DNA of 64,000 nucleotides. Source: Candidatus Limnocylindria bacterium. GTDB taxonomy: Bacteria > Chloroflexota > Limnocylindria > QHBO01. The translations under genes were made by a program, and so were the position numbers. The stretch covers positions 8,060 through 72,059 of the forward strand of contig JBOGTC010000039.1 in NCBI GenBank assembly GCA_050692055.1, read 5' to 3'. A model generated the notes under the pieces. That model saw only the letters and a list, made by a program, of their open reading frames with translations. It did not search any database and had not been told where the DNA came from. This document shows, in pieces, positions 7,051 through 45,044 of the stretch. Positions within the stretch are counted from its first letter, which is position 1. The number at the start of each line of letters is the position of its first letter.

Positions 7051-7126
7051 TGGAGCGGGAGACGGGGATCGAACCCGCGACATTCAGCTTGGAAGGCTGA
7101 CGCTCTGCCAACTGAGCTACTCCCGC
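7051..7126 (-). tRNA. tRNA-Gly(TCC)
   Basis: GCGGGAGTAGCTCAGTTGGCAGAGCGTCAGCCTTCCAAGCTGAATGTCGCGGGTTCGATCCCCGTCTCCCGCTCCA: 76-nt cloverleaf, anticodon TCC, encoded CCA. Confidence 0.97.
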
Positions 7127-27591: not shown

Positions 27592-27766
27592 GTCGCCAGA
27601 TTCATGCCTGGTATGCGCCGGGCGCCCGGTATCGGTCTGTAGTCACCAAATTCATGCCAGGGCGAGCACCGCGGCTGGAACTCGACCCTCCTCGGCGCTT
27701 CGTGCAGACGGGGTGAGAATCTGGCGACTCGCGGCTAGCCACGCGCCTGGATCTGGGGACTCGCGG
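27592..27766. repeat. Mosaic repeat copy A: 50-bp satellite (27592-27641), 87-bp core (27642-27728), degenerate extra arm
   Basis: GTCGCCAGATTCATGCC at 27592, GTCACCAAATTCATGCC at 27642, GAATCTGGCGAC ending 27728; CTGGCGACTCGCGG and CTGGGGACTCGCGG repeat 32 nt apart. Confidence 0.85.
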
Positions 27767-27780
27767 GTGCCAGCAGCGCA

Positions 27781-30054
27781 TCATGCGACGCGGAACGACC
27801 GCAGGCGGAGCGAGTTGGCGACCACGCTCACGCTCGACAGGGCCATCGCGCCGGCAGCCAGGGCCGGGCTGAGCAGAAGCCCGGCGACCGGGAACAGCGC
27901 CCCCGCCGCCACCGGAATCAGCAGCACGTTGTATCCGAAGGCCCACCCCAGGTTCTGGCGGATCGTGCGCATCGTCGCGCGCGACAGGCCGATGGCGCCC
28001 GGCACGCCGCGCAGGTCGTCTCCCACCAGCGTGATGTCGGACGCCTCGAGCGCCACGTCGGCGCCGGTGCCGATGGCGATGCCGACGTCGGCCTGGGCCA
28101 GCGCGGGAGCGTCGTTGATGCCGTCTCCGACCATCGCCACGCTTCGCCCATCCGCCTGAAGCCGAGCGATCTCCGCGGCCTTCTGCGCTGGCAGCACCTC
28201 GGCCAGGATGCGCTCGGGACCGATGCCCACCGTGGATCCGATGGCCTGGGCGGTCGTCCGGCGATCGCCGGTGAGCATCCAGACCTCCAGCCCGGCATCC
28301 TGCAGACGCCGGACAGCCTGCGTCGACTCGGGCTTCACGGTATCGGCGATGGCGATGAGCCCGATGAGCACGCCGTCGCGGGCCACGAACACCGCTGAGC
28401 TGCCGGACGAGGCCACGCCATCGGCGCGCTCGCGCAGCGGCGAAATGTCGATGCCCGATGAGGCCAGGAAGGCCTCGGCACCGACGAGCACAGCCGTCCC
28501 TTCGACGGCAGCGCTGACGCCCTGGCCGGCGACCGCCTCGAACGCCGTCGTGATCGCGATCTCGATCCCGACCCGCTCCGCGTGGCGCACGACCGCCTCG
28601 GCCAGTGGATGCTCGCTGCCCCGTTCGGCTGCGGCGGCGACATGCAGCAGCGTCCGCTCGTCGATGCCGGCGGCGGGGATCACCTCGGTCACCGATGGCT
28701 CTCCGCGCGTGATGGTGCCGGTCTTGTCGAGCACCACCGCGTCGACCCGGTGGGCGTGCTCGAGTGCCGCGCCGTCCCGGACCAGGATGCCGCTCTGCGC
28801 ACCTTTGCCCGTGCCGACCATGATGGCGGTCGGCGTCGCGAGACCCATGGCGCACGGGCAGGCGATGATCAGGACGGCGATGGTGCTGGCCAGGGCGTAC
28901 GTCAGCGCCGGCTCGGGGCCGATGAGGAGCCAGCCGGCGAAGGTGAGGGTCGCCAGCACGATGACGGCGGGCACGAACCAGCCTGTGACTCGATCCGCCA
29001 ACCGCTGGATGGGGGCCTTCGAGCCCTGTGCCCGCTCCACGAGGTCGACGATCTGGGCGAGCGCGGTGTCGCGCCCGACGCGTTCGGCCCGCATGACGAA
29101 GCTGCCGGAAGCATTCATGGTCGCGCCGATGACCCGGTCGCCGCTCACCTTCTCGACCGGCATCGATTCCCCGGTGAGCATCGACTCGTCGACCGCCGAC
29201 GCTCCCTCGAGCACCACGCCGTCGACGGGCACCCGGTCGCCGGGTCGGACGCGGACGAGATCACCGGCCACGACCTGCTCCACCGGAACGTCGATCTCGC
29301 GCCCATCGCGCAGCACGCGAGCAGTGGCGGGACGGAGCTTCAGCAGTGCCTTGACCGCGCCGGCCGCGCGTCCCTTGGCGCGCGCTTCCAGCCACCGGCC
29401 GAAGAGGATGAGGCCGATGATGATCGCGGCCGAATCGAAATAGGTCTCGTGCGACACGCCGGCCGCCATCAGCGCGTCCGGCATGAGCGTCACGAACAGC
29501 GAGTAGCCGTACGCCGCCAGCGTCCCCATCGCCACGAGGGTGTTCATGTTCGCCTCGCCGTGCCTGGCGCCCCGCAGGGCGGCCACCAGGAACCGACGAC
29601 CGTAGACGAACTGGACGATCGTGGCCGGAGCCAGGAACCAGACGTTGATGCGGTCCATCGGCCACGGCGCGCCGCCCGGCCAGAACATGACGGCCATCAT
29701 CGCCAGGCCGACCGCCGTCGAGACGAGGGCACCGATGAGCAGGTCACGCTGCTCGGCGGATGGTTGCGCCTCCTCGGCCGCGTCGGCCGCCGAAACCTCC
29801 ACGGAATCCTCGGCGCGCCGATCGGGGCGCACCTCGTAGCCGGCGGCCTCGATGGCGGCGACGATGCCGGTGCGATCGATCAGCGCCGGATCGAAGCGCA
29901 CGCTGGCGCGTTCGGTCGCCAGATTGACGCTGGCGTCGCTGACTCCATCGGCCCTGCGCAGGAAGCGCTCGATCCGGTTCACACAGCTGGCGCAGGTCAT
30001 GCCCACGACGGGCAGGGAAAGCTCGGCATCGGTCGCGACATTCGGGGTGCTCAT
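27781..30054 (-). CDS. copA: Copper-translocating P1B-type ATPase
   Basis: GMTCASC, TGES, CPC, DKTGT, HPL, GDGIND, YN and MALSS motifs; start chosen at MSTPNV. Confidence 0.95.
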
Positions 30055-30066
30055 CGGTCCCACGAG

Positions 30067-30085
30067 GATACTATGGGGGAGTATC
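30067..30085. promoter_or_regulatory. CsoR/RcnR-type operator upstream of copA
   Basis: GATACTATGGGGGAGTATC = TACT-7 nt with G-tract-AGTA; overlaps a minus-strand -10-like TAGTAT (30068-30073). Confidence 0.7.
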
Positions 30086-30224
30086 GCGTGTCGAGGCGTG
30101 ACGTTGCAGGAAACCGATAGCTTGCCCGCTCTCCATGCATGCGTTCCGTTGTCAGAACGACGGTCAGTCACGGAATCCGCATGCGTGCGAGGCATGGCCC
30201 TTGCAAGTGAACTCACGAGACACC

Positions 30225-30635
30225 ATGAAACCTCGTCACATGACTCAGTCAAGGCGTGGCACAGGCAGCTCTTCGGCCCGTGCGCGCCGTCGCGCCTTCG
30301 TCGTTGACGACAACGTAGAGACCCTCACGCTCCTCGACGATGTCGTGCGGAATGCCGGCTGGGAGACGAGGTGCTTCACGCGTCTGCGGTCGGTGCGCCG
30401 CGCTCTACGTGAGTCACCGCCCATGCTGATGATCCTGGATGACGAATTGCCCGATGGCCGAGGCGGTGACCTCGTGCAGGAGCTCCGAAGCGATCCGCGG
30501 CTGCGCGACGTCTCGGTCATCGTCTGCACGGCCGCCGATCCCGCGCGCCAGGCCGAGATCGGGGCGTGGGCGCCGGTCCTCTCGAAGCCATTCAGCCTTG
30601 CCGACCTTGAGCGTTATCTCCAGCGCGCGGCCTGA
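30225..30635 (+). CDS. Single-domain response regulator
   Basis: [22 protein letters not shown]. Confidence 0.85.
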
Positions 30636-30681
30636 GCGCCCTCGCGGCTGGGCGCAGTCCGGCCTGCTACGCTTCGGTGCG

Positions 30682-31899
30682 ATGCGCGCGCTGGTTCTCA
30701 CCAACGAGTTCCCGCCCGCGATCTACGGTGGCGCCGGTATCCATGTGGCCGAGCTGACGCGCCACCTGCGCTCGCTGATCGAGCTCGACGTTCGCACCTT
30801 CGGCGGCCATCACGAGGCCGAGGACCGATGGCGGGCGCGCGGCTATCCCGTCTCGCACGAGCTGGACACGGCCGACGAGCGCCTGCGGCCGATCGTCGGC
30901 GCGCTCTCGCGCGACATCGGCATGCTCGCCGATCCGGTCGCGGCCGACGTGGTCCACTGCCACACCTGGTACACCCACCTCGCCGGGATCCTGATCCGCC
31001 TGGCCTACGGCATCCCGCTGGTGATCACCGTCCACTCGCTGGAGCCGTTGCGGCCATGGAAGCGGGAGCAGCTCGGCGGCGGCTACGACGTCAGCAGCTG
31101 GGTCGAGCGGACGGCGCTCGAGATGGCCGATGCCGTCATCGCGGTGAGCGAGGAGACGCGCGCGGACGTGCTGCGACTCTTCCCGGCCGTGGTGCCTGAG
31201 CGCGTGCACGTCATCCACAACGGGATCGACACCGATTTCTATCGCCCCGATCCTGCGACCGACGTGCTCGACGGCTACGGCGTCGATCCGTCGGGCCCGT
31301 ACGTGCTCTTCGTGGGTCGCGTGACACGGCAGAAGGGAATCGTCCACCTGGTCCGAGCGATTCGGCATCTCGATCCGTCGATCGGCGTCGTGCTGTGCGC
31401 CGGCCAGCCGGATACGCCACAGATCGCGGCCGAGATGGAGGCCGGCCTCGCCGAGGCGCGCCGGCAGCGAGAGAACGTGACGTGGATCGGCGAGATGGTC
31501 AGCCGCGAGGCAGTCCGGCAGCTGTACAGCCATGCGACGGTCTTCTGCTGTCCATCGGTCTACGAGCCGTTCGGGATCATCAATCTCGAGGCTGCCGCCT
31601 GCGAGACGCCGGTCGTGGCGAGCGCCGTGGGCGGCATTCCCGAGGTGGTGGTGGATGGCGAAACCGGGCTGCTCGTGCCGGTCGAGCTCAGCCTGGACGA
31701 TCCGATGTCGCCGATCGACCCCGACCGCTTCGAGCGCAACCTGGCCGGTGCCATCAACGCCCTTGTCGCCGATCCGGCCGGTCGTGAGGCGATGGGTCGC
31801 GCCGGACGGGCACGCGCCATCGAGCACTTCAGCTGGTCGTCGATCGCCGAGCGCACAGTCGCCCTGTACGAGTCGCTGGCGCTCGCCCGGGCGTCGTGA
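30682..31899 (+). CDS. glgA: GT4 glycogen synthase, actinobacterial GlgA/GlgM type
   Basis: TNEFPPAIYGGAG, HCHTWY, HSLEPLRPWKREQLGGGY, FVGRVTRQKG, YEPFGIINLEA. Confidence 0.92.
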   Translation: MRALVLTNEFPPAIYGGAGIHVAELTRHLRSLIELDVRTFGGHHEAEDRWRARGYPVSHELDTADERLRPIVGALSRDIGMLADPVAADVVHCHTWYTHLAGILIRLAYGIPLVITVHSLEPLRPWKREQLGGGYDVSSWVERTALEMADAVIAVSEETRADVLRLFPAVVPERVHVIHNGIDTDFYRPDPATDVLDGYGVDPSGPYVLFVGRVTRQKGIVHLVRAIRHLDPSIGVVLCAGQPDTPQIAAEMEAGLAEARRQRENVTWIGEMVSREAVRQLYSHATVFCCPSVYEPFGIINLEAAACETPVVASAVGGIPEVVVDGETGLLVPVELSLDDPMSPIDPDRFERNLAGAINALVADPAGREAMGRAGRARAIEHFSWSSIAERTVALYESLALARAS

Positions 31900-31923
31900 C
31901 GATCCAGCGACCGCGCAACGCGC

Positions 31924-32601
31924 TTAGGGCGTGACGCGCGACATGAGCGCCAGCGTGTTGCCCTCGCCATCCTCGAAGAAGGCCATCCACTCCTCGGCGC
32001 CGGTGTCGTCATCGGTGTAGATGAGGTGTGGCGCTCCGCTGAAGCGAACGCCGCGGCGCACGAGCTCAGCGTGGGCGGCGTGGATCCCGTCGACGACGAA
32101 ATACAGGATCGAGCCTGGGCGCCACTCATCCTCGCCCTTGCGATGCAGGTAGATGCGGACCCCTGCGGCGTCGAAGAAGGCGAGATCGCCGAACGTGAAC
32201 AGATGCCGCAGGCCGAGGACCTCGCCGTAGAAGCGCTTCGCGCGTTCGACGTCCCTGATCGAAAGCGAGACTTGGCCGATGGCGTTCAGCGACAGGCCGT
32301 TCACCTCGGTCGCGGCGTCCGCGGCTGGATTGGATGGGCTGCCTGTCATGTGACTGCTCCTGGTGCGTGCGAGAAGGCTTGTGGACGGGATGCCGGGCCA
32401 CTGCCGCAGCGCGGTTGGGCCACGGACGCCCAGCTTGCCGGCGATGTTCGCGAGGTGGAACTTGACCGCGTGAAGGCTCGTTCCTCGGCGACGCCCGATC
32501 TCCTGCCGCGAGGCGCCATGCCGCAGGAGATTCAGCACCTCCCACTCGGCGGGGGTCAGCACGTCGGGGTGAGGCGGTCGTCCGCGGCCTCGGTGTCTCA
32601 T
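31924..32601 (-). CDS. LuxR-type HTH fused to a VOC/glyoxalase domain
   Basis: LTPAEWEVL..HAVKFHLANIAGKL HTH; IGQVSLSIRDVERAKRFY..LYFVV..FFEDGEGNTLALM VOC. Confidence 0.85.
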   Translation of the reverse strand: MRHRGRGRPPHPDVLTPAEWEVLNLLRHGASRQEIGRRRGTSLHAVKFHLANIAGKLGVRGPTALRQWPGIPSTSLLARTRSSHMTGSPSNPAADAATEVNGLSLNAIGQVSLSIRDVERAKRFYGEVLGLRHLFTFGDLAFFDAAGVRIYLHRKGEDEWRPGSILYFVVDGIHAAHAELVRRGVRFSGAPHLIYTDDDTGAEEWMAFFEDGEGNTLALMSRVTP

Positions 32602-32654
32602 CGTGGAAAGAGCCTAGCGAAGCAGGCGAGGAATTACCCTCCCCTCAGCCTCAA

Positions 32655-32741
32655 GTCGCCAAATTCATGCCTGGCCGGCACGCGGCCAGAAGAACAGCCG
32701 CCTTACAGCCATGGTGCGGCTCCCGGGCTGAATCTGGCGAC
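32655..32741. repeat. Mosaic repeat copy B: 87-bp core
   Basis: GTCGCCAAATTCATGCC…GCTGAATCTGGCGAC; interior alignable to copies A, C and D. Confidence 0.88.
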
Positions 32742-32838
32742 TAGAAGAGGTGCCTGAGGTCCTCGTGCCTGAGAACGACGGCACGGTCGGTCCAACGGCC
32801 GATGACGTGGCGGCCGACTCCCCGCTAGCATCGCCGCC

Positions 32839-33651
32839 ATGACTTCCCCGAGCACCCTGGAGCGGCGGCGCCCGCTCGGCGCCGACGAGCGAACGCCGAT
32901 CATCGTCGTCAGCGATCTTCGCAAGCGCTACGGCAGCCTGACCGCGGTCGACGGGGTCAGCTTCGAGGTCCACGCCGACGAGGTCTTCGGCATCCTGGGA
33001 CCGAACGGCGCGGGCAAGACCACGACGCTCGAGATGATCGAGGGCATGCGCTCGATCGACTCCGGCTCGGCCAGCGTGGACGGCCTCGACGTGGCCAGCG
33101 ACCCCCGCGGCGTGAAGCGGCGCATCGGCATCCAGCTGCAGTCGAGCGCCTTCTTCGACGAGCTCAACCTCGTCGAGCTGCTGCACCTCTTCGGCCGAAT
33201 GTACGAGCGCGACGTGGACGCCATGGACCTGCTTGCCCAGGTCGAGCTGACCGAGAAGGCGCATGCGCAGGTGCGCACGCTGTCGGGAGGTCAGAAGCAG
33301 CGCTTCAGCATGGCCTCGGCGCTGGTGAACGACCCACGCGTCCTCTTCCTCGACGAGCCGACGACCGGGCTCGATCCGCAGGCCCGCCGCCACATGTGGG
33401 GCCTGATCCGCCGCATCCAGGCCGATGGCCACACCGTGGTCCTGACCACCCACTACATGGAGGAGGCGGAAGAGCTCTGCGGCCGCGTGGCGATCATGGA
33501 CCGCGGGCGGATCATCGCCCTCGACACGCCGCAGCGGCTCATCGACGACCTGGTCGGGCGCGGCTTTCGCAAGGAGCGCGTGGAGCGGCTGGCCAACCTG
33601 GAGGACGTCTTCATCGACATCACCGGCCACGAGCTGCGGGACGAGGACTGA
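32839..33651 (+). CDS. ABC-2 exporter ATP-binding subunit
   Basis: GPNGAGKT, LSGGQ, FLDEPTTGLD, TTHYMEEAE. Confidence 0.95.
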   Translation: MTSPSTLERRRPLGADERTPIIVVSDLRKRYGSLTAVDGVSFEVHADEVFGILGPNGAGKTTTLEMIEGMRSIDSGSASVDGLDVASDPRGVKRRIGIQLQSSAFFDELNLVELLHLFGRMYERDVDAMDLLAQVELTEKAHAQVRTLSGGQKQRFSMASALVNDPRVLFLDEPTTGLDPQARRHMWGLIRRIQADGHTVVLTTHYMEEAEELCGRVAIMDRGRIIALDTPQRLIDDLVGRGFRKERVERLANLEDVFIDITGHELRDED

Positions 33652-33654
33652 CCG

Positions 33655-34764
33655 ATGCGCCTCACCGGCATCCGGCTCGGCATGTTCTGGGCCCTCTTCG
33701 TCGCCAGCAGCAAGATGTTCATCCGCAACCGCGCAGCCGTCTTCTTCAGCCTCTTCCTGCCGCTCATCATCATGCTCATCTTCGGCGTGCTGAACTTCGA
33801 GGGCAGCACCGAGATCGATCTGGGCATCGTCGACGAGGCCGATAACGAGGCGAGCAACGACCTCGTCGCGGGCCTCGAGGAGTACGACTACCTCATCATC
33901 AGCGCAGGCGAGCAGGCGGGGGAGCTCGAGGCGCTCGAGGCCGGCGACCGCGACTTCGTGCTCACCATCCCCGCCGATTGGGCGCCGCCCGCGCCGGGGC
34001 TGCCGACCGGGCTGGTCGCGCGCTCCGCCACGTCGGATCCGGCGCAGGCGCAGGTGGCGCAGGGGCTGCTGCAGCAGGCCATCGGCCAGGCGATCTTCGC
34101 GCCGGGAGGCGATGGCGGCGCGGGGGCCTTCACGCCGCCCGTGGACGTCGAGGCGGTCCAGTCGCGCGACCTGGGCTACATCGACTTCCTGGTCCCGGGC
34201 ATCGTTGGCATGACGGTCATGCAGCTCGGGCTGTTCGGCGTCGCATTCGGCTTCGTGCAGCTCAAGCGCACCGGGGCGCTGCGACGGCTCTTCGCCACAC
34301 CGACCTCGCCCGCCTACTTTCTGTCGGCGCAGGTGGCCTCCCGCCTCATCATCGGCGTGGTGCAGGTGGCGATCCTGTTCGGCATCGGCCTGTGGTTCGG
34401 GCTCCAGATGTTTGGCGACTACATGAGCCTGGCCGTGATCGTCATCATCGCCTCGGCGATCTTCCTGGCCGTCGGCTTCGCGATTGCGGGCTGGGCCAGG
34501 AACGAGGACCAGGCGGCGCCGGTGGCCAACCTCATCAGCCTGCCGATGCTCTTCCTGTCCGGCGTCTTCTTCCCGCGTGACGCGATGCCCGACATCCTGG
34601 CCAGCATCACCCAGTTCATGCCGCTCACCTATGTCAACGAGGCGCTGCGCGCGGTCGTGAACGACGGCGCCACGCTGCCGGCTCTGGGGCCGCAGCTGCT
34701 CGGGATGGGCGTCTGGGCGATCATCACCTTCGTGATCGCGGTGATGCTCTTCAAGTGGGAGTAG
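33655..34764 (+). CDS. ABC-2 exporter permease
   Basis: Six-TM ABC2_membrane pattern; YIDFLVPG, FLSGVFFP. Confidence 0.92.
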   Translation: MRLTGIRLGMFWALFVASSKMFIRNRAAVFFSLFLPLIIMLIFGVLNFEGSTEIDLGIVDEADNEASNDLVAGLEEYDYLIISAGEQAGELEALEAGDRDFVLTIPADWAPPAPGLPTGLVARSATSDPAQAQVAQGLLQQAIGQAIFAPGGDGGAGAFTPPVDVEAVQSRDLGYIDFLVPGIVGMTVMQLGLFGVAFGFVQLKRTGALRRLFATPTSPAYFLSAQVASRLIIGVVQVAILFGIGLWFGLQMFGDYMSLAVIVIIASAIFLAVGFAIAGWARNEDQAAPVANLISLPMLFLSGVFFPRDAMPDILASITQFMPLTYVNEALRAVVNDGATLPALGPQLLGMGVWAIITFVIAVMLFKWE

Positions 34765-34768
34765 GTCC

Positions 34769-35134
34769 GTGAAGCTGATCGAGCTCCTGCTGCGCCTCGA
34801 GTGGCTGGTGGTCTTCCTGGCCGGCATCGGCCTCTACCTGGCCATGAACGGCCACCCGCTGTGGCTGCTGCCGCTGCTCCTGGCGCCGGACGTCTCGATG
34901 CTCGGCTACCTCGGCGGTCCGCGCCTCGGCGCGGCCACCTACAACGCGGCACACAACCTGGTGGTCGCGCTCAGCGTCCTGGCCATCGGCTGGTTCGCGG
35001 CGCTGGCGCCCGTGGCTTTGGCCGGCGCTCTGCTCGTGGCGCACGTTGGCATGGACCGATCGCTGGGCTACGGGCTCAAGCTGGCGACCGGCTTTCGCGA
35101 CACGCATCTCGGCCGGATCGGGACGGACCGATAA
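34769..35134 (+). CDS. DUF4260 family membrane protein
   Basis: LLLRLE, PDVSMLGY, YNAAH, AHVGMDRSLGYGLK. Confidence 0.88.
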   Translation: MKLIELLLRLEWLVVFLAGIGLYLAMNGHPLWLLPLLLAPDVSMLGYLGGPRLGAATYNAAHNLVVALSVLAIGWFAALAPVALAGALLVAHVGMDRSLGYGLKLATGFRDTHLGRIGTDR

Positions 35135-35141
35135 TGGACCG

Positions 35142-36551
35142 ATGCATCCGCATGCCTCCGGACCGATCAGCCGGCGGCGCCTGCTGCAGCTGGGGGCGGC
35201 GGCCTCGGCGGCCGGCCTGGCGGCCTGCGCCGCACCGATCCCCTCGCTGACGCCGCGGCAATCTCCCGCCTCGGCGCCGACCTCCACGCCAAGCCCGTCG
35301 CCCTCTCCGACCCCCGCTGCCACGCCGTCACCCTCACCCACCGCGACCCCGGTGCCGGCAACGGGGAGCATGCTGTACCGCGACGGCGCCCTGGCGGACG
35401 GCCGCTCCGCGGCGCTGGAGCGTAACGTCAGCATCCTCGTCAGCGACGGCCGCATCGCCTGGATTCGCCCGACCGGCGGCGAGGAGGACTCGAGCGGCGC
35501 GCGCGTCATCGACTGCGCGGGGGCGACCTTCGTCCCGGGGATGGTCGACTGCCACAGCCACGTCACCGGTCCGGGCGGCGCGAACTGGATCGCCCGCTTC
35601 AACGACCCACCCGAGGAGCTGGTCGCCGTGGCCGAGCACAACGGCCGCATCGGCATGGCGGCGGGGGTGCGCTGGATGCGCGACGTGGGGTCGCCGCTCG
35701 GCGCCGACCCCGTCGACGGCCGCGAGCGCGCGCTGGCGCTCGGCGTGCGGGACCGATGGGCCGGCCGGATCGACCGGCCCTACCTGCGCGCCGCCGGCTC
35801 GTGGCTCTTCAAGAGTGGCGTGAACCCGATGCGCTCGGCGATCGAGGTGCAGACCGGCGACGAGCTGCTGGCCGCGGCGATGGGCCAGCTCGACGCGGGC
35901 GCCGATCTCGTGAAGCTCTACATGGATGGCCCGGACGCGAACGTCAGCCCATGGACGGCGAACGAGGTGAGCCGCGTCGTCGAGGCGGTGCATGCCCGCG
36001 GCGCGCGCGTGGCCGCGCACTCGGGTCGCCTCAACGGCGCGCAGGCGGCGGCGGCCGGCGGCGTCGACTCCATCGAGCATGGGTTCGACCTCGATGCCGC
36101 GGTGGCGGCCGAGATGGCGCGTCGAGGCATCGTGCTGGTCACCACGCTATCGGTCCAGCGCTCGTGGCTCTCCTTCGGCAACACCACCTCGATGGAGCGG
36201 TTTGCCGGCGAGGCAGGTCGCGCTGCGAACGCGGCGCGGCTCGAGCAGGGGGAGGCGTCGATGCGGCTGGCGCGTGACGCCGGCGTGCCAATCGCGACCG
36301 GCAGTGACTTCGGCGGAGGGTCGCTGCGCGCGAACCAGCTGGCTTGGGAGGTGACGAGCCTCGTGTCGGCCGGCCTGGAGCCGGTCGATGCCCTGGCCGC
36401 CGCCACCTGGCGCGGAGGGGAGCTCCTCGGCGAGGCCGAGGCGGGCATCATCCGCGAGGGCGGTCCGGCCGACTTCTTCCTCGTCCACGGCGACCCGCTC
36501 TCGGATCCCGAGTCCCTCTGGCGCGTCTGGCGCACCGCCTGGGCGCCGTAG
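35142..36551 (+). CDS. Amidohydrolase (Xaa-Pro dipeptidase-like) with a Tat lipoprotein signal
   Basis: SRRRLL..LAAC, P/S/T linker, PGMVDCHSH, VKLY, AAH, SIEHG, TGSD. Confidence 0.88.
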   Translation: MHPHASGPISRRRLLQLGAAASAAGLAACAAPIPSLTPRQSPASAPTSTPSPSPSPTPAATPSPSPTATPVPATGSMLYRDGALADGRSAALERNVSILVSDGRIAWIRPTGGEEDSSGARVIDCAGATFVPGMVDCHSHVTGPGGANWIARFNDPPEELVAVAEHNGRIGMAAGVRWMRDVGSPLGADPVDGRERALALGVRDRWAGRIDRPYLRAAGSWLFKSGVNPMRSAIEVQTGDELLAAAMGQLDAGADLVKLYMDGPDANVSPWTANEVSRVVEAVHARGARVAAHSGRLNGAQAAAAGGVDSIEHGFDLDAAVAAEMARRGIVLVTTLSVQRSWLSFGNTTSMERFAGEAGRAANAARLEQGEASMRLARDAGVPIATGSDFGGGSLRANQLAWEVTSLVSAGLEPVDALAAATWRGGELLGEAEAGIIREGGPADFFLVHGDPLSDPESLWRVWRTAWAP

Positions 36552-36735
36552 GCTCGGTATCGGCTCAGCCGGTATCGGCGCTCCACGTCGGCAGCCGTGT
36601 CGGCTCAGCCGCATCTGTGCGCATCCCGGGCGCTGCCAGCGCACATCCGGGGCGTTGTGACCAGATCTCGCGGTCCGCGTGCAGGACCGCCGCGGCGTCC
36701 GGCCGCGGCGGTCAGGGTCGCCAGGAAGGAGCTGC

Positions 36736-37182
36736 CTAGCTGAACGGGTCGGTGTCGCGCCTATCCGTCCGCCCCAGGTCCTGGTCCGTCCGACCGAAGT
36801 CCGGGCCCGCGGGGCGGTTCGTGGGATCGCCCTCGACTCCACGCCCGTAGTAGGTGCCGACCTGGTCGCGATAGGCCTGGTCGTGATAGCCGAACTCATC
36901 CAGCTCAGGCGCGTTCTTGATCTCGTCCTTCGTCCGGTTCACGAAGACCTTGCGGTCGGTCTCATCGATGCGCTCGATGACGCCCGCCGGCAGCATCACC
37001 TTCTTGCCGAAGATCCACGGTCCCGTGTCGACGATGAGATAGCTCGCATCGACCTCGTTCGTCGACTCGTCGATGGTCCCGATGCTTCCGTCACGTGCCT
37101 CGACCCCGAAGCCCGATAGGTCGATGCCGGCCCAGGCCGTGTCGCCATAGGCCCACATCTCGACAACTGTCATTCGCTCCAT
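36736..37182 (-). CDS. PRC-barrel domain protein
   Basis: GFGVEARDGSIGTID..YLIVDTGPWIFGKKVMLPAGVI..TKDEIKNAPE. Confidence 0.88.
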   Translation of the reverse strand: MERMTVVEMWAYGDTAWAGIDLSGFGVEARDGSIGTIDESTNEVDASYLIVDTGPWIFGKKVMLPAGVIERIDETDRKVFVNRTKDEIKNAPELDEFGYHDQAYRDQVGTYYGRGVEGDPTNRPAGPDFGRTDQDLGRTDRRDTDPFS

Positions 37183-37304
37183 GATCTGAGTCCCTCTGCG
37201 GTGCAATCACTCCCAGGGGGTGCAGCCCGCGTGCCCGTTCGTCGCCGAATCGACGAGCGAGCCCTCGGTATCTCGCGTGCCTGGTACCCTCGTCACCACG
37301 CCAG

Positions 37305-37442
37305 ATCGCCAGATTCATACTCAGCATGCACGCCTGTCCGAAAACGGCGGTCCTGGTCGCCGTGGTGCGGTGCCCGGCCTGAATCTGGCGACAACGACGG
37401 CCCGCAGCTCGCCCCGTGCAGCCTGGGCATGAATATGGCGAC
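37305..37442. repeat. Mosaic repeat copy C: 88-bp core (37305-37392) plus 50-bp satellite (37393-37442)
   Basis: ATCGCCAGATTCAT…CCTGAATCTGGCGAC, then GCATGAATATGGCGAC ending exactly 50 nt later. Confidence 0.88.
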
Positions 37443-37671
37443 ACGCCGCGGCGACGGCGGCGCTGCGCAGCGGAGCCTCGCTGTGTCGGGACCATGGCGG
37501 CGCTTGCTACCCTTTGCCCATGACCGATCGTCCCGATTTCGGCCGGCGGCCGCCGAAGGCGCCACGGAAGAGCCAGGCGTCGGGGTCGACACGGTCAGCG
37601 TGATGGACGGTGTTGAGCAAGTCGGCTGACACGACGGGCGCCGACAGTTCCCGGACAGCGGTGGGTGCTGC

Positions 37672-38991
37672 ATGACCGATCCGATTCGCTACGCGCGCAG
37701 CGGCGAGGTCAACGTCGCATTCCAGGTGACAGGCGACGGGCCATTCGACCTGGTCCTGGTACCGGGATTCTTCTCCCACCTCGAGATCGATTGGGAATAC
37801 CCAGCCATGGCGGGCATGCTCGAGCGGCTGGGTTCGTTCGCCAGGCTCATTCGCTTCGACAAGCGCGGTACTGGCCTTTCCGACCGATCGGTCGGCCTCC
37901 CCGACTTCGAGACGCGCATGGATGACGTCAGGGCTGTCATGGATGCCGCTGGCAGCGAGCGGGCGGCGCTGCTTGGGTACTCGGAAGGCGGACCGATGTG
38001 CGTACTCTTCGCGGCCACCTATCCCGAGCGCACGCGCGCCCTCGTCCTGTACGGGACGTACGCGAAGCGCCAGCACCCGGACGAGGACTACCCGTGGGCG
38101 CCGACGTCCGAAGAGCGCCTGCGGTACGCGAAGGAGCTCGAGGCGACGTGGGGCGAGAACACGGACATCGCGAAGATGTCGCCGAACGCCGACGAGGCGC
38201 TGGTGGCGTGGTTTCAGCGCCGAGGGCGGGCTTCGCTGAGCCCGGCGGCAGCGCGCGACCTGATCCTCATGAACTCACAGGCAGACGTCCGCCACGCCCT
38301 CCCCGCAGTCCAGTGTCCGACCCTCGTCCTGCACCGTAGCGGCGACCGCGACTCGCGGGCTGACGAAGGACGCTACATCGCGGCGAAGATTCCGGGCGCC
38401 CGCTTCGTCGAGCTGAGTGGGGACGATCACCTGCCTGCCGTCCGCCCGGACGAGATCATCGACGAGGTCGAGGAGTTCCTCACCGGCGTACGCTCCGCGC
38501 CCGCGGCGGACCGCGTGCTGGCCACGGTGCTGTTCACTGATCTCGTCAGCTCAACGGCCAGGGCCGAGACCCTCGGTGATACGGCGTGGGCCAGCCTTCT
38601 CAGGTCGCACAACGAGGCCGTTCGTCGTGAGCTTGCCCGCTTCTCCGGCGAGGAGATCGACACCGCGGGCGACGGGTTCCTCGCCGTCTTCGACGGGCCC
38701 GCGCGGGCCATCCGGTGCGCCCTCGAGATCCGTGCCGTGGTAGGCCGGCTCGGGCTGGATGTGCGGGCGGGCGTGCACACCGGAGAGGTCGAGCGGCGTC
38801 GCGGTGACAAGCCGCAGGGGATCGCCGTGCACGTTGGTGCCCGCATCATGTCGCTGGCCGCGGCGAAGGAGGTCCTCGTCAGCTCGACGACGCGAGACCT
38901 CGTCGCGGGCTCTGGCCTCGAGTTCGACGACCGGGGAGAGCACGAGCTGAAGGGGATCGAGGGACGCCGCCGCGTCTTCGCCGCACGCTGA
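37672..38991 (+). CDS. Alpha/beta-hydrolase fused to a class III adenylate/guanylate cyclase (LipJ/Rv1900c-like)
   Basis: GYSEGG nucleophile motif; VLFTDLVSST, TAGDGF, RAGVHTGE, GIAVHVGARI. Confidence 0.92.
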   Translation: MTDPIRYARSGEVNVAFQVTGDGPFDLVLVPGFFSHLEIDWEYPAMAGMLERLGSFARLIRFDKRGTGLSDRSVGLPDFETRMDDVRAVMDAAGSERAALLGYSEGGPMCVLFAATYPERTRALVLYGTYAKRQHPDEDYPWAPTSEERLRYAKELEATWGENTDIAKMSPNADEALVAWFQRRGRASLSPAAARDLILMNSQADVRHALPAVQCPTLVLHRSGDRDSRADEGRYIAAKIPGARFVELSGDDHLPAVRPDEIIDEVEEFLTGVRSAPAADRVLATVLFTDLVSSTARAETLGDTAWASLLRSHNEAVRRELARFSGEEIDTAGDGFLAVFDGPARAIRCALEIRAVVGRLGLDVRAGVHTGEVERRRGDKPQGIAVHVGARIMSLAAAKEVLVSSTTRDLVAGSGLEFDDRGEHELKGIEGRRRVFAAR

Positions 38992-39068
38992 CCGGGCTCG
39001 CCAGCAGAGCAGGCGTCCGTGCGTCCGGGTGGCCGTGGCGATCGAGTGAGGTCGGGCACGGGGAGCGA

Positions 39069-39205
39069 GTCGCCATATTCAGGCCAGGCATGCATGACTT
39101 GCCGAGAGGGCGCTCGTAGCCGCCATCCTGCGTTGCCACGTCTGAATTCGGGGCCAAGGACGACCTGGGGCTCGCCCCATGCAGGCCCCATATGAATCTG
39201 GTTGC
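39069..39205. repeat. Mosaic repeat copy D (decayed): 87-bp core (39069-39155) plus 50-bp satellite (39156-39205)
   Basis: GTCGCCATATTCAGG…CTGAATTCGGGGCC; satellite shares GCTCGCCCCRTGCAG with copy C and ends ATGAATCTGGTTGC. Confidence 0.8.
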
Positions 39206-39310: not shown

Positions 39311-43807
<4,497 letters not shown>

Positions 43808-43829
43808 CGGGCCCGCGGCTCCGGGGGCG

Positions 43830-44100
43830 GTCAGCCGCCCTTCGGACGGCTTATTCCTCAGAGACTGAACGGTCGGCCGAACCGTCGGGCACGGGCGCTC
43901 CGCCTACGTTTCATTCTGTGAAGACTCATCCGTCGGTGGAGCATCGGCCGCCGCCCGCTCCGCCGATGGTTCATTCCCTCAGGAATGGGCGGCGGCAATA
44001 ACCCGCCGAAGGCCAAGGAATCGGGCGGGACACAACGAAACGTCCCGAAGGAACCACGGACCCTTTGATGCAATCTCTGGGTCACGGACTCCTCCGGGAC
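43830..44100 (-). ncRNA. Candidate ~270-nt structured ncRNA of unknown class
   Basis: Own promoter; 59-nt 5' hairpin; two 60-nt repeats with conserved stems; 3' hairpin; G-U pairs favour the minus strand; no hallmark motifs of known RNA classes seen by eye. Confidence 0.55.
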
Positions 44101-44107
44101 AAGACGT

Positions 44108-44136
44108 ATGCTACCGGCGCCCGAAAGGACCGCCAA
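44108..44136 (-). promoter_or_regulatory. Sigma70-type promoter
   Basis: Minus strand TTGGCG-17 bp-TAGCAT, implying a TSS at about 44101/44100. Confidence 0.7.
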
Positions 44137-44173
44137 CCCCCTTTCTCCACGACTTCGGCGCCGCGCCGCAGAG

Positions 44174-44193
44174 TTATCCACCGTTTGTCCACA
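44174..44193 (+). promoter_or_regulatory. Two DnaA-box-like 9-mers
   Basis: TTATCCACC (44174-44182) and TTGTCCACA (44185-44193), each one mismatch from TTATCCACA, 2 nt apart. Confidence 0.5.
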
Positions 44194-44204
44194 GCCGGGG
44201 CCGG

Positions 44205-45044
44205 TCAGACGAGAAACGGCAGGAGGTAGTGGTCCGACAGGCCGCCGAGGTTCAGCGCGGTCGTCAGCGCGGCAAAGCAGGCGAAGGCCAGGATGACGAG
44301 CCAGTCGGCTCGGTCGTAGCGCAGCTCGCGGTACCAAGAGCGGCGGCCGGTACCGAATGCACGCAGATCCATGGCGTCGATGGTGTCCTCCGCATTGGCA
44401 ATTGCCCCGACTGTCACCGGCACCAGGACCGGGGCGAACTGCCGGATGCGTCGGATAGGGTTGCGGCTTCCGCGCGCCGGGTCGTAGCCGCGGACGCGTT
44501 GCGCGGCGATAGTCTCGGCGAACTCGGCACCGAGCGAGGGGATGAAGCGAATCGTGAGGTCGAGGGCGAAGGCGAGGCGGTCCGGCAGGCCCAGCCGTCG
44601 GAAAGCGACGCCGAAGTCACCAGGTGCGACGGTGTAGGCGATGGGGATGCTGACCGCGACGAAGCCCAGAAAGCGTAGGATCTGGCTCACGCTGAGGCTG
44701 ATCGCCTCGGCCGTGATCGGTGCTCCGAGCAGTGGAATGCGGAAGAGCACATGCACCTCGTCCGCGGCGAAACCTCCCGCGCGGCCGCCGGTGATGATCG
44801 TGTTGATGCCGGCGATGAAGATGATGATCGTGGCCAGATAGATCCACTGGGCACGCACCCGGCGCCAAGGGATCCGAGCCGTTGCGTAGTAGGCGAGGCC
44901 GAACCCCAGCGCCAGGGCCAGATGACGGGCATCGCGCAGCTGGATCGCCCCGATGACGAAGAGGAGCGCCGCCAGAAGCATCGTCCGCGGGTCGCGGCGT
45001 GCGAGCCATGACCCGCGGCCGATGTAGTGGAACGACGCGCGCAT
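44205..45044 (-). CDS. ecfT: ECF transporter T component
   Basis: RRDPR, IRFIP, AQRVRG, AMDLRAF (two X-R-X motifs). Confidence 0.93.
   Translation of the reverse strand: MRASFHYIGRGSWLARRDPRTMLLAALLFVIGAIQLRDARHLALALGFGLAYYATARIPWRRVRAQWIYLATIIIFIAGINTIITGGRAGGFAADEVHVLFRIPLLGAPITAEAISLSVSQILRFLGFVAVSIPIAYTVAPGDFGVAFRRLGLPDRLAFALDLTIRFIPSLGAEFAETIAAQRVRGYDPARGSRNPIRRIRQFAPVLVPVTVGAIANAEDTIDAMDLRAFGTGRRSWYRELRYDRADWLVILAFACFAALTTALNLGGLSDHYLLPFLV

Follow-up and report, generated by a model that had tools for sequence, protein, structure and literature searches.

A predicted multi-copy hairpin RNA gene of Candidatus Limnocylindria, preceded by DnaA-box-like sites and adjoined by an inserted palindromic repeat

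The stretch 43830-44136, located in the gap between the convergent genes lhr and ecfT of a Candidatus Limnocylindria genome, appears to consist of two unrelated features: a gene for a hairpin RNA of ~70 nt and, adjoining it, an inserted palindromic DNA repeat. We put the probability of this explanation, taken as a whole and including the DnaA-box-like sites in the promoter of the RNA gene, at about 0.78. A previous sequence-only reading had described the stretch as one RNA of ~270 nt, transcribed from the minus strand and made of a 5' hairpin followed by two 60-nt modules. Coordinates are those of the window, i.e., the whole 64-kb stretch of DNA analysed, and the feature was read on the minus strand over 43500-44500 (Table 1). 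The identity of both flanking genes, as named in that earlier reading, is confirmed by their Pfam domains.

Table 1. Features in and around the gap between ecfT and lhr, listed in the direction of the minus strand (window coordinates).
Feature	Position	Strand	Remarks
ecfT/CbiQ-type transporter gene	44205..45044	-	Pfam CbiQ, E 9e-19; upstream flank of the RNA gene
Complete small-RNA gene, predicted (boxes, -35, -10, hairpin, tail)	44193-44030	-	
Box 3, distal, TGTGGACAA	44185..44193	-	DnaA-box-like, predicted; 12 nt after the ecfT stop
Box 2, GGTGGATAA	44174..44182	-	DnaA-box-like, predicted; 11 nt from box 3; the most conserved
Box 1, proximal, CGTGGAGAA	44143..44151	-	DnaA-box-like, predicted; 31 nt from box 2, 6 nt before the -35
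-35 element TTGGCG	44131..44136	-	TTG conserved in the alignment of upstream regions
-10 element TAGCAT	44108..44113	-	17 nt past the -35, 7 nt before the hairpin
59-nt hairpin RNA, arms GTCCCGGAGGA...TCCTTCGGGAC	44042..44100	-	Model R1, 76.2 bits
U-rich tail GUUUCGUUGUGU	44030..44041	-	RTTTCnTTG kept after every copy
Inserted mosaic palindromic element, 134 bp	43853..43986	.	Terminal inverted repeats ATTCCTCAG / CCTCAGGAAT around two 55-56-nt palindromic units
Palindromic unit 1	43922..43976	.	nhmmer E 9e-11 / 1e-10 on the two strands
Palindromic unit 2	43862..43917	.	nhmmer E 1.8e-11 / 1.1e-11 on the two strands
Small hairpin AGCCGTCC-GAA-GGGCGGCT	43833..43851	not assigned	26 nt past the lhr stop; read in the sequence and folded
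lhr helicase gene	39311..43807	+	Pfam DEAD, Helicase_C, DEAD_assoc and WH_Lhr domains; convergent flank

The composite nature of the region is indicated by the different reach of its two parts in a BLAST search, in which its DNA was queried against 40 related genomes and the window's own assembly (G000). Segment 44104-44024 found matches in 23 relatives belonging to the same family, most of them with two or more matching places, whereas the matches of segment 43996-43849 were confined to its own genome, at ~70% identity and on both strands. A tblastn search with EcfT and the C-terminus of Lhr showed that the order ecfT-RNA-lhr recurs in many genera. The interval between the ecfT stop and the 5' end of the RNA, which corresponds to the promoter, measures 105 nt here, within the range of 94-131 nt found in five orthologous loci. 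On the other side, 229 nt separate the RNA 3' end from the lhr stop in the window; among 17 other loci, this distance is 2-120 nt in ten, 252 nt in one and 1-2 kb in six. Past the tail of the hairpin the sequences of 11 other ecfT-lhr loci are unrelated to each other and to the window, and conservation across genera ends in them at the tail (44030). The unit conserved at these loci is about 70 nt long, far from the ~270 nt proposed earlier.

The conserved part is a 59-nt hairpin, for which a covariance model (R1; 79 positions, 22 pairs) was built from the copies in relatives; the score of the window copy corresponds to E values of ~4e-18 to 2e-17, depending on the search. When the copies from relatives were folded, every one of them formed a single long hairpin with a common layout, GTCCCGRAGGRGC ... 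GAGATTGCATCAA ... GGTTCCTTCGGGAC, followed by RTTTCnTTG. The closing stem (GUCCCGGAGGAG/GGUUCCUUCGGGAC) is invariant and contains tandem G.U pairs. The apical module, which reads GA-GAU-UGC-AUC-AA here and has the invariant form GA-GAU-YRC-AUC-AA in the family, is composed of a 2x2 GA/AA internal loop, a 3-bp GAU/AUC helix and a YRC triloop. The window copy carries the complete family signature, i.e., the closing stem GYCCGRAGGRG / GGUUCCUUCGGGRC, the apical module and the tail RUUUCnUUG.

Covariation was examined in 71 distinct sequences aligned to the model. Standard pairs are formed in 95% of the cells, and compensatory changes on both sides are seen in 10 of the 22 pairs; none of 500 shuffles reached these pairing measures, and pairing fell to 30-60% when the partners were slid. 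All six pairs of the middle stem covary, while the closing stem is almost without variation and keeps its two adjacent G.U pairs. Length changes among the copies sit between the 5' arm and the conserved loop, and such indels leave no conserved reading frame. A coding reading of the hairpin (an SD-like GGAGGAG, then GUG) was ruled out because they break the frame between copies. Folded alone, the 5' hairpin has a z-score of -4.76, with -34.7 kcal/mol on the minus strand vs. -29.4 kcal/mol on the plus strand. Together with the conserved tandem G.U pairs, this difference places the RNA on the minus strand of the window, in agreement with the earlier reading, which had put a 59-nt hairpin at the start of the transcript and had seen in its G-U pairs a preference for that strand.

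The closing stem and the U-rich tail most likely make up the intrinsic terminator of the hairpin RNA, and the transcript would then be ~70 nt long, ending at its own hairpin and tail. A terminator scan flags 44054-44042 together with GTTTCGTTGT. Since the U run in the tail is short (GUUUCGUUGU), termination could be leaky. The small hairpin close to the lhr stop is not conserved in orthologous ecfT-lhr loci and may be a terminator for lhr or for read-through.

The search with model R1 found the hairpin in all 121 genomes of the same family (Ca. Limnocylindria, Chloroflexota), representing 24 of 24 genera, usually in 4-5 copies per genome and in five in G000. In a second family of the class, a longer form of the hairpin is carried by nearly every genome; it shares the closing stem and the promoter layout of the first family, and often its apical loop too. 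No convincing match to the model was found in three other families of the class, where one genome gave a single marginal match. A pattern scan of named genomes also placed the hairpin family in the Chloroflexota, class Candidatus Limnocylindria, all of them MAGs, and the few matches in bins of other phyla are probably contamination. Promoter, hairpin and tail recur in 121 of the 121 family genomes and the stems covary, so that the core of the sequence-only reading, an independently promoted and structured minus-strand RNA gene predicted near 44100, has stood well.

The RNA has no Rfam counterpart, in keeping with the earlier reading, which had seen no hallmark motifs of RNase P, SRP, tmRNA or common riboswitches. 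An Rfam 15 covariance search of the window at gathering thresholds gave no match for it, and at E<=10 the region 43700-44300 gave chance-level matches only (<=15 bits). The hairpin RNA family is undescribed, and it is multi-copy in uncultured Chloroflexota. The sole Rfam match in the window is a tRNA gene at 7054-7126 (-).

Several copies depart from the common form or position. Long variants of 100-120 nt occur in the window's own genome (G000:C33:7572-7673) and at loci L007 (G012:C1) and L026 (G021:C81); a second internal arm is present in some of them, and in some, including L007 and L026, the apical GAGATTGCATCAA module is duplicated. The fifth copy of G000 (C136:2942-3023, minus strand) has a degenerate 5' arm (GCCTCGGAGAAGC) and no box array, and may be decaying or differently regulated. 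A second positional class is represented by G000:C155:74468-74548 (+), where the RNA is convergent with a uracil phosphoribosyltransferase gene (the protein ends ...DETAEVVRRLQR), an arrangement that recurs in at least five other genomes.

A scan of the phylum gave weak matches in one other Chloroflexota family of lower GC content (L217-L222; G362, G271, G260, G394 and G346). They are terminator-type hairpins located after genes; a 10-bp closing stem, GTCCCGAAGG/CCTTCGGGAC, is followed by a tail that is GTTTCG or rich in T, no DnaA-like boxes are present, and a genome can contain as many as 15 of them. Two share a 66-nt interior. The recurrence of the same closing stem and GTTTCG tail in so distant a family makes this pair of elements look like a phylum-wide terminator or handle module.

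Upstream of the hairpin, the -35/-10 arrangement is conserved before every homologous copy: TAnnnT is found 6-7 nt before GTCCC in all copies, and a TTGnnn -35 is likewise kept in relatives. The minus-strand promoter TTGGCG-17-TAGCAT, already proposed in the earlier reading, was not flagged by a simple promoter scan because it scores only 8/12. Its position would set the start of transcription at ~44101-44100.

The promoter is preceded by three direct GTGGAnAA boxes, whose spacings of 11 and 31 nt put them on one face of the helix. The general DnaA-box consensus is TTATCCACA / TTGTCCACA, with TGTGGAYAA as its reverse complement. Compared to this consensus, TGTGGACAA is exact, GGTGGATAA has one mismatch and CGTGGAGAA has two. 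The upstream regions of the 71 distinct copies align without gaps, and their consensus reads, from distal to proximal, an occasional inverted GTCCAC, tGgGGAyaa, TGTGGATAAC (the strongest), cGTGGAnAA and the -35. When boxes were scored as having at most one mismatch to TGTGGAYAA, they were found at -82 +/-1 in 68 of the 71 homologous copies, at -51 +/-1 in 35 and at -93 +/-1 in 24, with at least one box in 70 of them. The average is 1.80 boxes per upstream region against 0.015 in shuffles, a 120-fold enrichment. The 31-nt spacing is fixed in the four G000 copies that share the architecture, and in that genome two boxes 31 nt apart are found only at RNA genes (four of the five).

It is plausible that DnaA reads these boxes, and we would give this slightly better than even odds. 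The best-conserved box, TGTGGATAAC, is the exact complement of the general DnaA-box consensus TTATCCACA. Boxes were also found in the dnaA-dnaN gap of all six genomes examined: 3-4 in G000 (where dnaA is at C95:13643-14989), four in G005 and one each in G022, G067, G180 and G220. In addition, boxes 11 and 31 nt apart that share one side of the helix would be suited to DnaA oligomers. These three observations speak against a dedicated Limnocylindria transcription factor that would read the GTGGAnAA boxes of the same small-RNA gene instead of DnaA, which we regard as possible but clearly the less likely reader. Such a factor would agree with the frequent degeneration of the proximal box (GGGGATAA, GTGGAGAA), with the presence of a single box beside dnaA in four of the six genomes, and with the many other promoters of G000 that have one box ~29 nt before the -10, like a class II activator site. 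The clusters beside dnaA were modest in an origin search, and no dense origin-like cluster of exact boxes was found in the two nearly closed genomes, G005 and G067.

TGTGGATAA, the reverse complement of the general consensus TTATCCACA, occurs 12 times in G000 vs. 2.8 expected. Single or paired GTGGAYAA boxes lie ~29 nt before TAnnnT -10-like elements at intergenic sites such as G000 C16:25870, C18:28501, C28:17212 / C54:229, C101:4125 and others, and the same regulon may extend to these sites. Two exact boxes placed back to back at a distance of 20-30 nt were seen at G000:C52:330-372, G005:C2:1949605-1949633 and G067:C1:61370-61398.

Phased boxes at 4-5 loci per genome could also be thought of as elements working at the DNA level, i.e., DnaA titration or reactivation sites like datA or DARS, with the hairpin transcript as a by-product that ends local transcription. 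Each promoter does hold 2-4 phased boxes, in nearly closed genomes a noticeable fraction of all exact boxes lies in the promoters of the RNA genes, and the same closing stem and tail serve as a plain post-gene terminator hairpin in the distant Chloroflexota family. A by-product, however, would not be expected to keep its 13-nt apical module invariant, to undergo compensatory changes in the middle stem, or to have its apical module duplicated as in L007 and L026, and the tandem G.U pairs kept on one strand fit selection on an RNA and not a generic terminator. We consider this explanation improbable.

The second part of the stretch has very different properties. Its periodic motifs are as described in the sequence-only reading, with GAATGAA at 43976-70 and 43916-10 and GGCGGAGCG at 43964-56 and 43904-896, as are the complement of a loop (the GCCGCCGCCC at 43996-87, complementary to the loop of the first palindromic unit) and the terminal hairpin at 43851-33. 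An iterated nhmmer profile run on its own genome recovered 21 units of this element at 12 loci in G000, each of them matched equally on both strands. Eight of the 12 loci are tandem pairs with a period of ~60 nt. The consensus of the units is AGACTGAACCGTCGGCSGAGCG, ~12 variable bases and CGYTCSGCCGACGGTTCAGTCT, with ATTCYCYSAGR and its complement as flanking sequences at almost every locus. Eleven of 13 stretches examined are intergenic, several of them between convergent genes; two short units (C143:13517 and C169:17657) are inside a predicted ORF.

The folding of these units shows no strand preference. The two-unit block of the window has z-scores of -4.6 and -5.0 and energies of -66.7 vs. 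-64.7 kcal/mol, and with these same energies it can also be folded as one long hairpin; the summed folding energies of the units are -554 and -534 kcal/mol on the two strands. Searched against 1.1 Mb of loci from other genomes, the profile gave nothing except one marginal match, and the element is absent from the orthologous ecfT-lhr loci. Its absence from these loci and its dispersal in G000 argue that it is an insertion and not a part of the RNA gene. It is, by its sequence features, one copy of a lineage-specific MITE/BIME-like palindromic DNA repeat, located between the terminator of the RNA and the 3' end of lhr. The homologs thus gave a split answer regarding the long RNA of the earlier reading, since its 5' hairpin is conserved and covaries and its 60-nt units are missing from the orthologous loci.

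As in REP/BIME elements and MITEs, the units are imperfect palindromes of 55-56 nt, single or in tandem pairs, intergenic and often at convergent 3' ends, with conserved stems, variable loops and short terminal inverted repeats. They differ from REP/BIMEs in the lack of a RAYT in the genome (no match to the Y1 transposase PF01797 in G000, which is ~90% complete), in having no GTAG head and in being longer than classical REPs. No clear target-site duplication was seen in the flanks examined, and neither a transposase nor a parent insertion sequence was identified for the element. The element was also compared with four 87/88-bp inverted-repeat cores of the window (GTCGCCAAATTCATGCC...GAATCTGGCGAC, 27642-39155), which belong to a different repeat family.

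Another MITE-like element, of ~235 bp and with terminal inverted repeats GGGCTATCCACTTCGCTCCACC, adjoins the palindromic units at three places in G000 (C24:12021-12254, C88:12167-12399 and C143:14837-15071) and has a solo end at C128:29730. Such a position could be explained by a mosaic repeat or by an element that has the palindromes as its target.

These data bear directly on the idea of a single ~270-nt RNA (44100-43833), whose 5' hairpin and two 60-nt modules would act as a sponge, a 6S/Ms1-like binder or a mini guide array. The whole 281-nt stretch does fold better than shuffles, with a z-score of -3.64 that is equal on both strands, the weak U tract after the first hairpin would permit read-through, and among the units the stems are conserved while the loops vary. 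However, conservation across genera stops at the tail and the orthologous loci are without the 60-nt units. Moreover, none of the other 11 loci of the repeat corresponds to any of the other four hairpin-RNA copies of G000, neither strand is favored in the folding of the units, and even with the cutoff relaxed to E 10 the Rfam search gives no match above chance level, to 6S, Ms1 or otherwise. We consider the long RNA very improbable, and the 60-nt units as dispersed DNA repeats and not as RNA modules. The first reading was right in noticing a conserved scaffold with variable loops, but this pattern characterizes a DNA repeat family and not a modular RNA such as a guide array or a 6S/Ms1-like RNA. 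A CRISPR-like or guide array was rejected since the constant parts are the arms of palindromes, ~70% alike between copies, the variable part is their loop, and the units are spread over 12 loci. The repeat itself is an ordinary one, and serves as a caution for annotation, since a genuine RNA gene with repeats beside it can be mistaken for one long RNA built of modules.

6S and Ms1 RNA are rods of 180-300 nt with a central bubble (PMC4191392, PMC9130861). Like them, the hairpin RNA would be a structured, abundant and promoter-driven non-coding RNA of high-GC bacteria. Its conserved unit is nevertheless a continuous hairpin of ~70 nt (59 nt plus the tail), without a bubble and without an Rfam match. 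An identity with 6S/Ms1 was rejected on size and shape against the literature description, and the RNA polymerase binder of this type put forward in the earlier reading goes with it.

Regarding the function of the ~70-nt hairpin RNA, its invariant apical module is likely to be what a partner, whether protein or RNA, recognizes. Full-length complements of the 13-nt apical loop, searched genome-wide in G000, were found at 0-1 mismatch only in the RNA genes themselves, so that a protein partner or a short seed are both possible. At one site with two mismatches (G000:C147:816), 11 nt match exactly across codons 2-5 of an anti-sigma-like gene; the match is at chance level, since ~1.3 such 11-mers are expected at random.

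A mechanism that would accommodate these observations is the following. A sigma-70-type promoter, TTGGCG-17-TAGCAT, preceded by the three direct boxes, would drive a single-hairpin RNA of ~70 nt, for which the closing stem and U-rich tail would act as its own terminator. The RNA of the window would be the ecfT-lhr positional copy of a family of siblings, 4-5 per genome, and the palindromic repeat would have been inserted between its terminator and the 3' end of lhr. DnaA, or a factor reading DnaA-like boxes, would gate the transcription of all siblings, tying the level of the RNA to the state of replication initiation. In a more ambitious version, which we offer tentatively and regard as rather unlikely in all its parts, the replication initiator would control a regulon of small RNAs: bound to the phased boxes as oligomers, DnaA-ATP would switch on the 4-5 siblings, and their apical module would act on a common partner, relaying replication status at the post-transcriptional level. 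Titration of DnaA would be a second role of the promoters, and a conserved protein would recognize the closing stem and tail as a terminator or handle module used across the phylum.

Families of paralogous short RNAs encoded by several genes in one genome, each gene with its own promoter and all with a shared architecture of upstream sites, are also known from Qrr1-5 (LuxO sites), RsmX/Y/Z (GacA box) and GlmY/GlmZ. A further likeness is that a single-stranded or loop module is conserved and that the RNA has a terminator of its own, which is predicted here. The differences are that there is no sequence or Rfam relation and that the Limnocylindria RNA is a single long hairpin with DnaA-box-like upstream sites in an uncultured Chloroflexota host. 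CcnA of Caulobacter crescentus is a non-coding RNA tied to cell-cycle master regulators, single-copy, located at the origin and CtrA-dependent (PMC8959179). The coupling of RNA synthesis to a replication or cell-cycle regulator would be a common trait, deduced from the boxes in the Limnocylindria RNA. The latter has 4-5 dispersed copies with DnaA-like boxes and no homology to CcnA.

Ca. Limnocylindria is an abundant uncultured class of soil and freshwater. A literature search found no paper on the small-RNA biology of this class, nor on such an RNA. To our knowledge, no sibling small RNAs under the replication initiator have been described, and none were found in the literature search. The boxes, the promoter and the hairpin are short and defined, so that DnaA binding and termination are testable in vitro without culturing the organism. 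A hairpin RNA found throughout the family in 4-5 copies, with DnaA-like boxes at rigid spacings upstream, would be a new regulatory RNA family.
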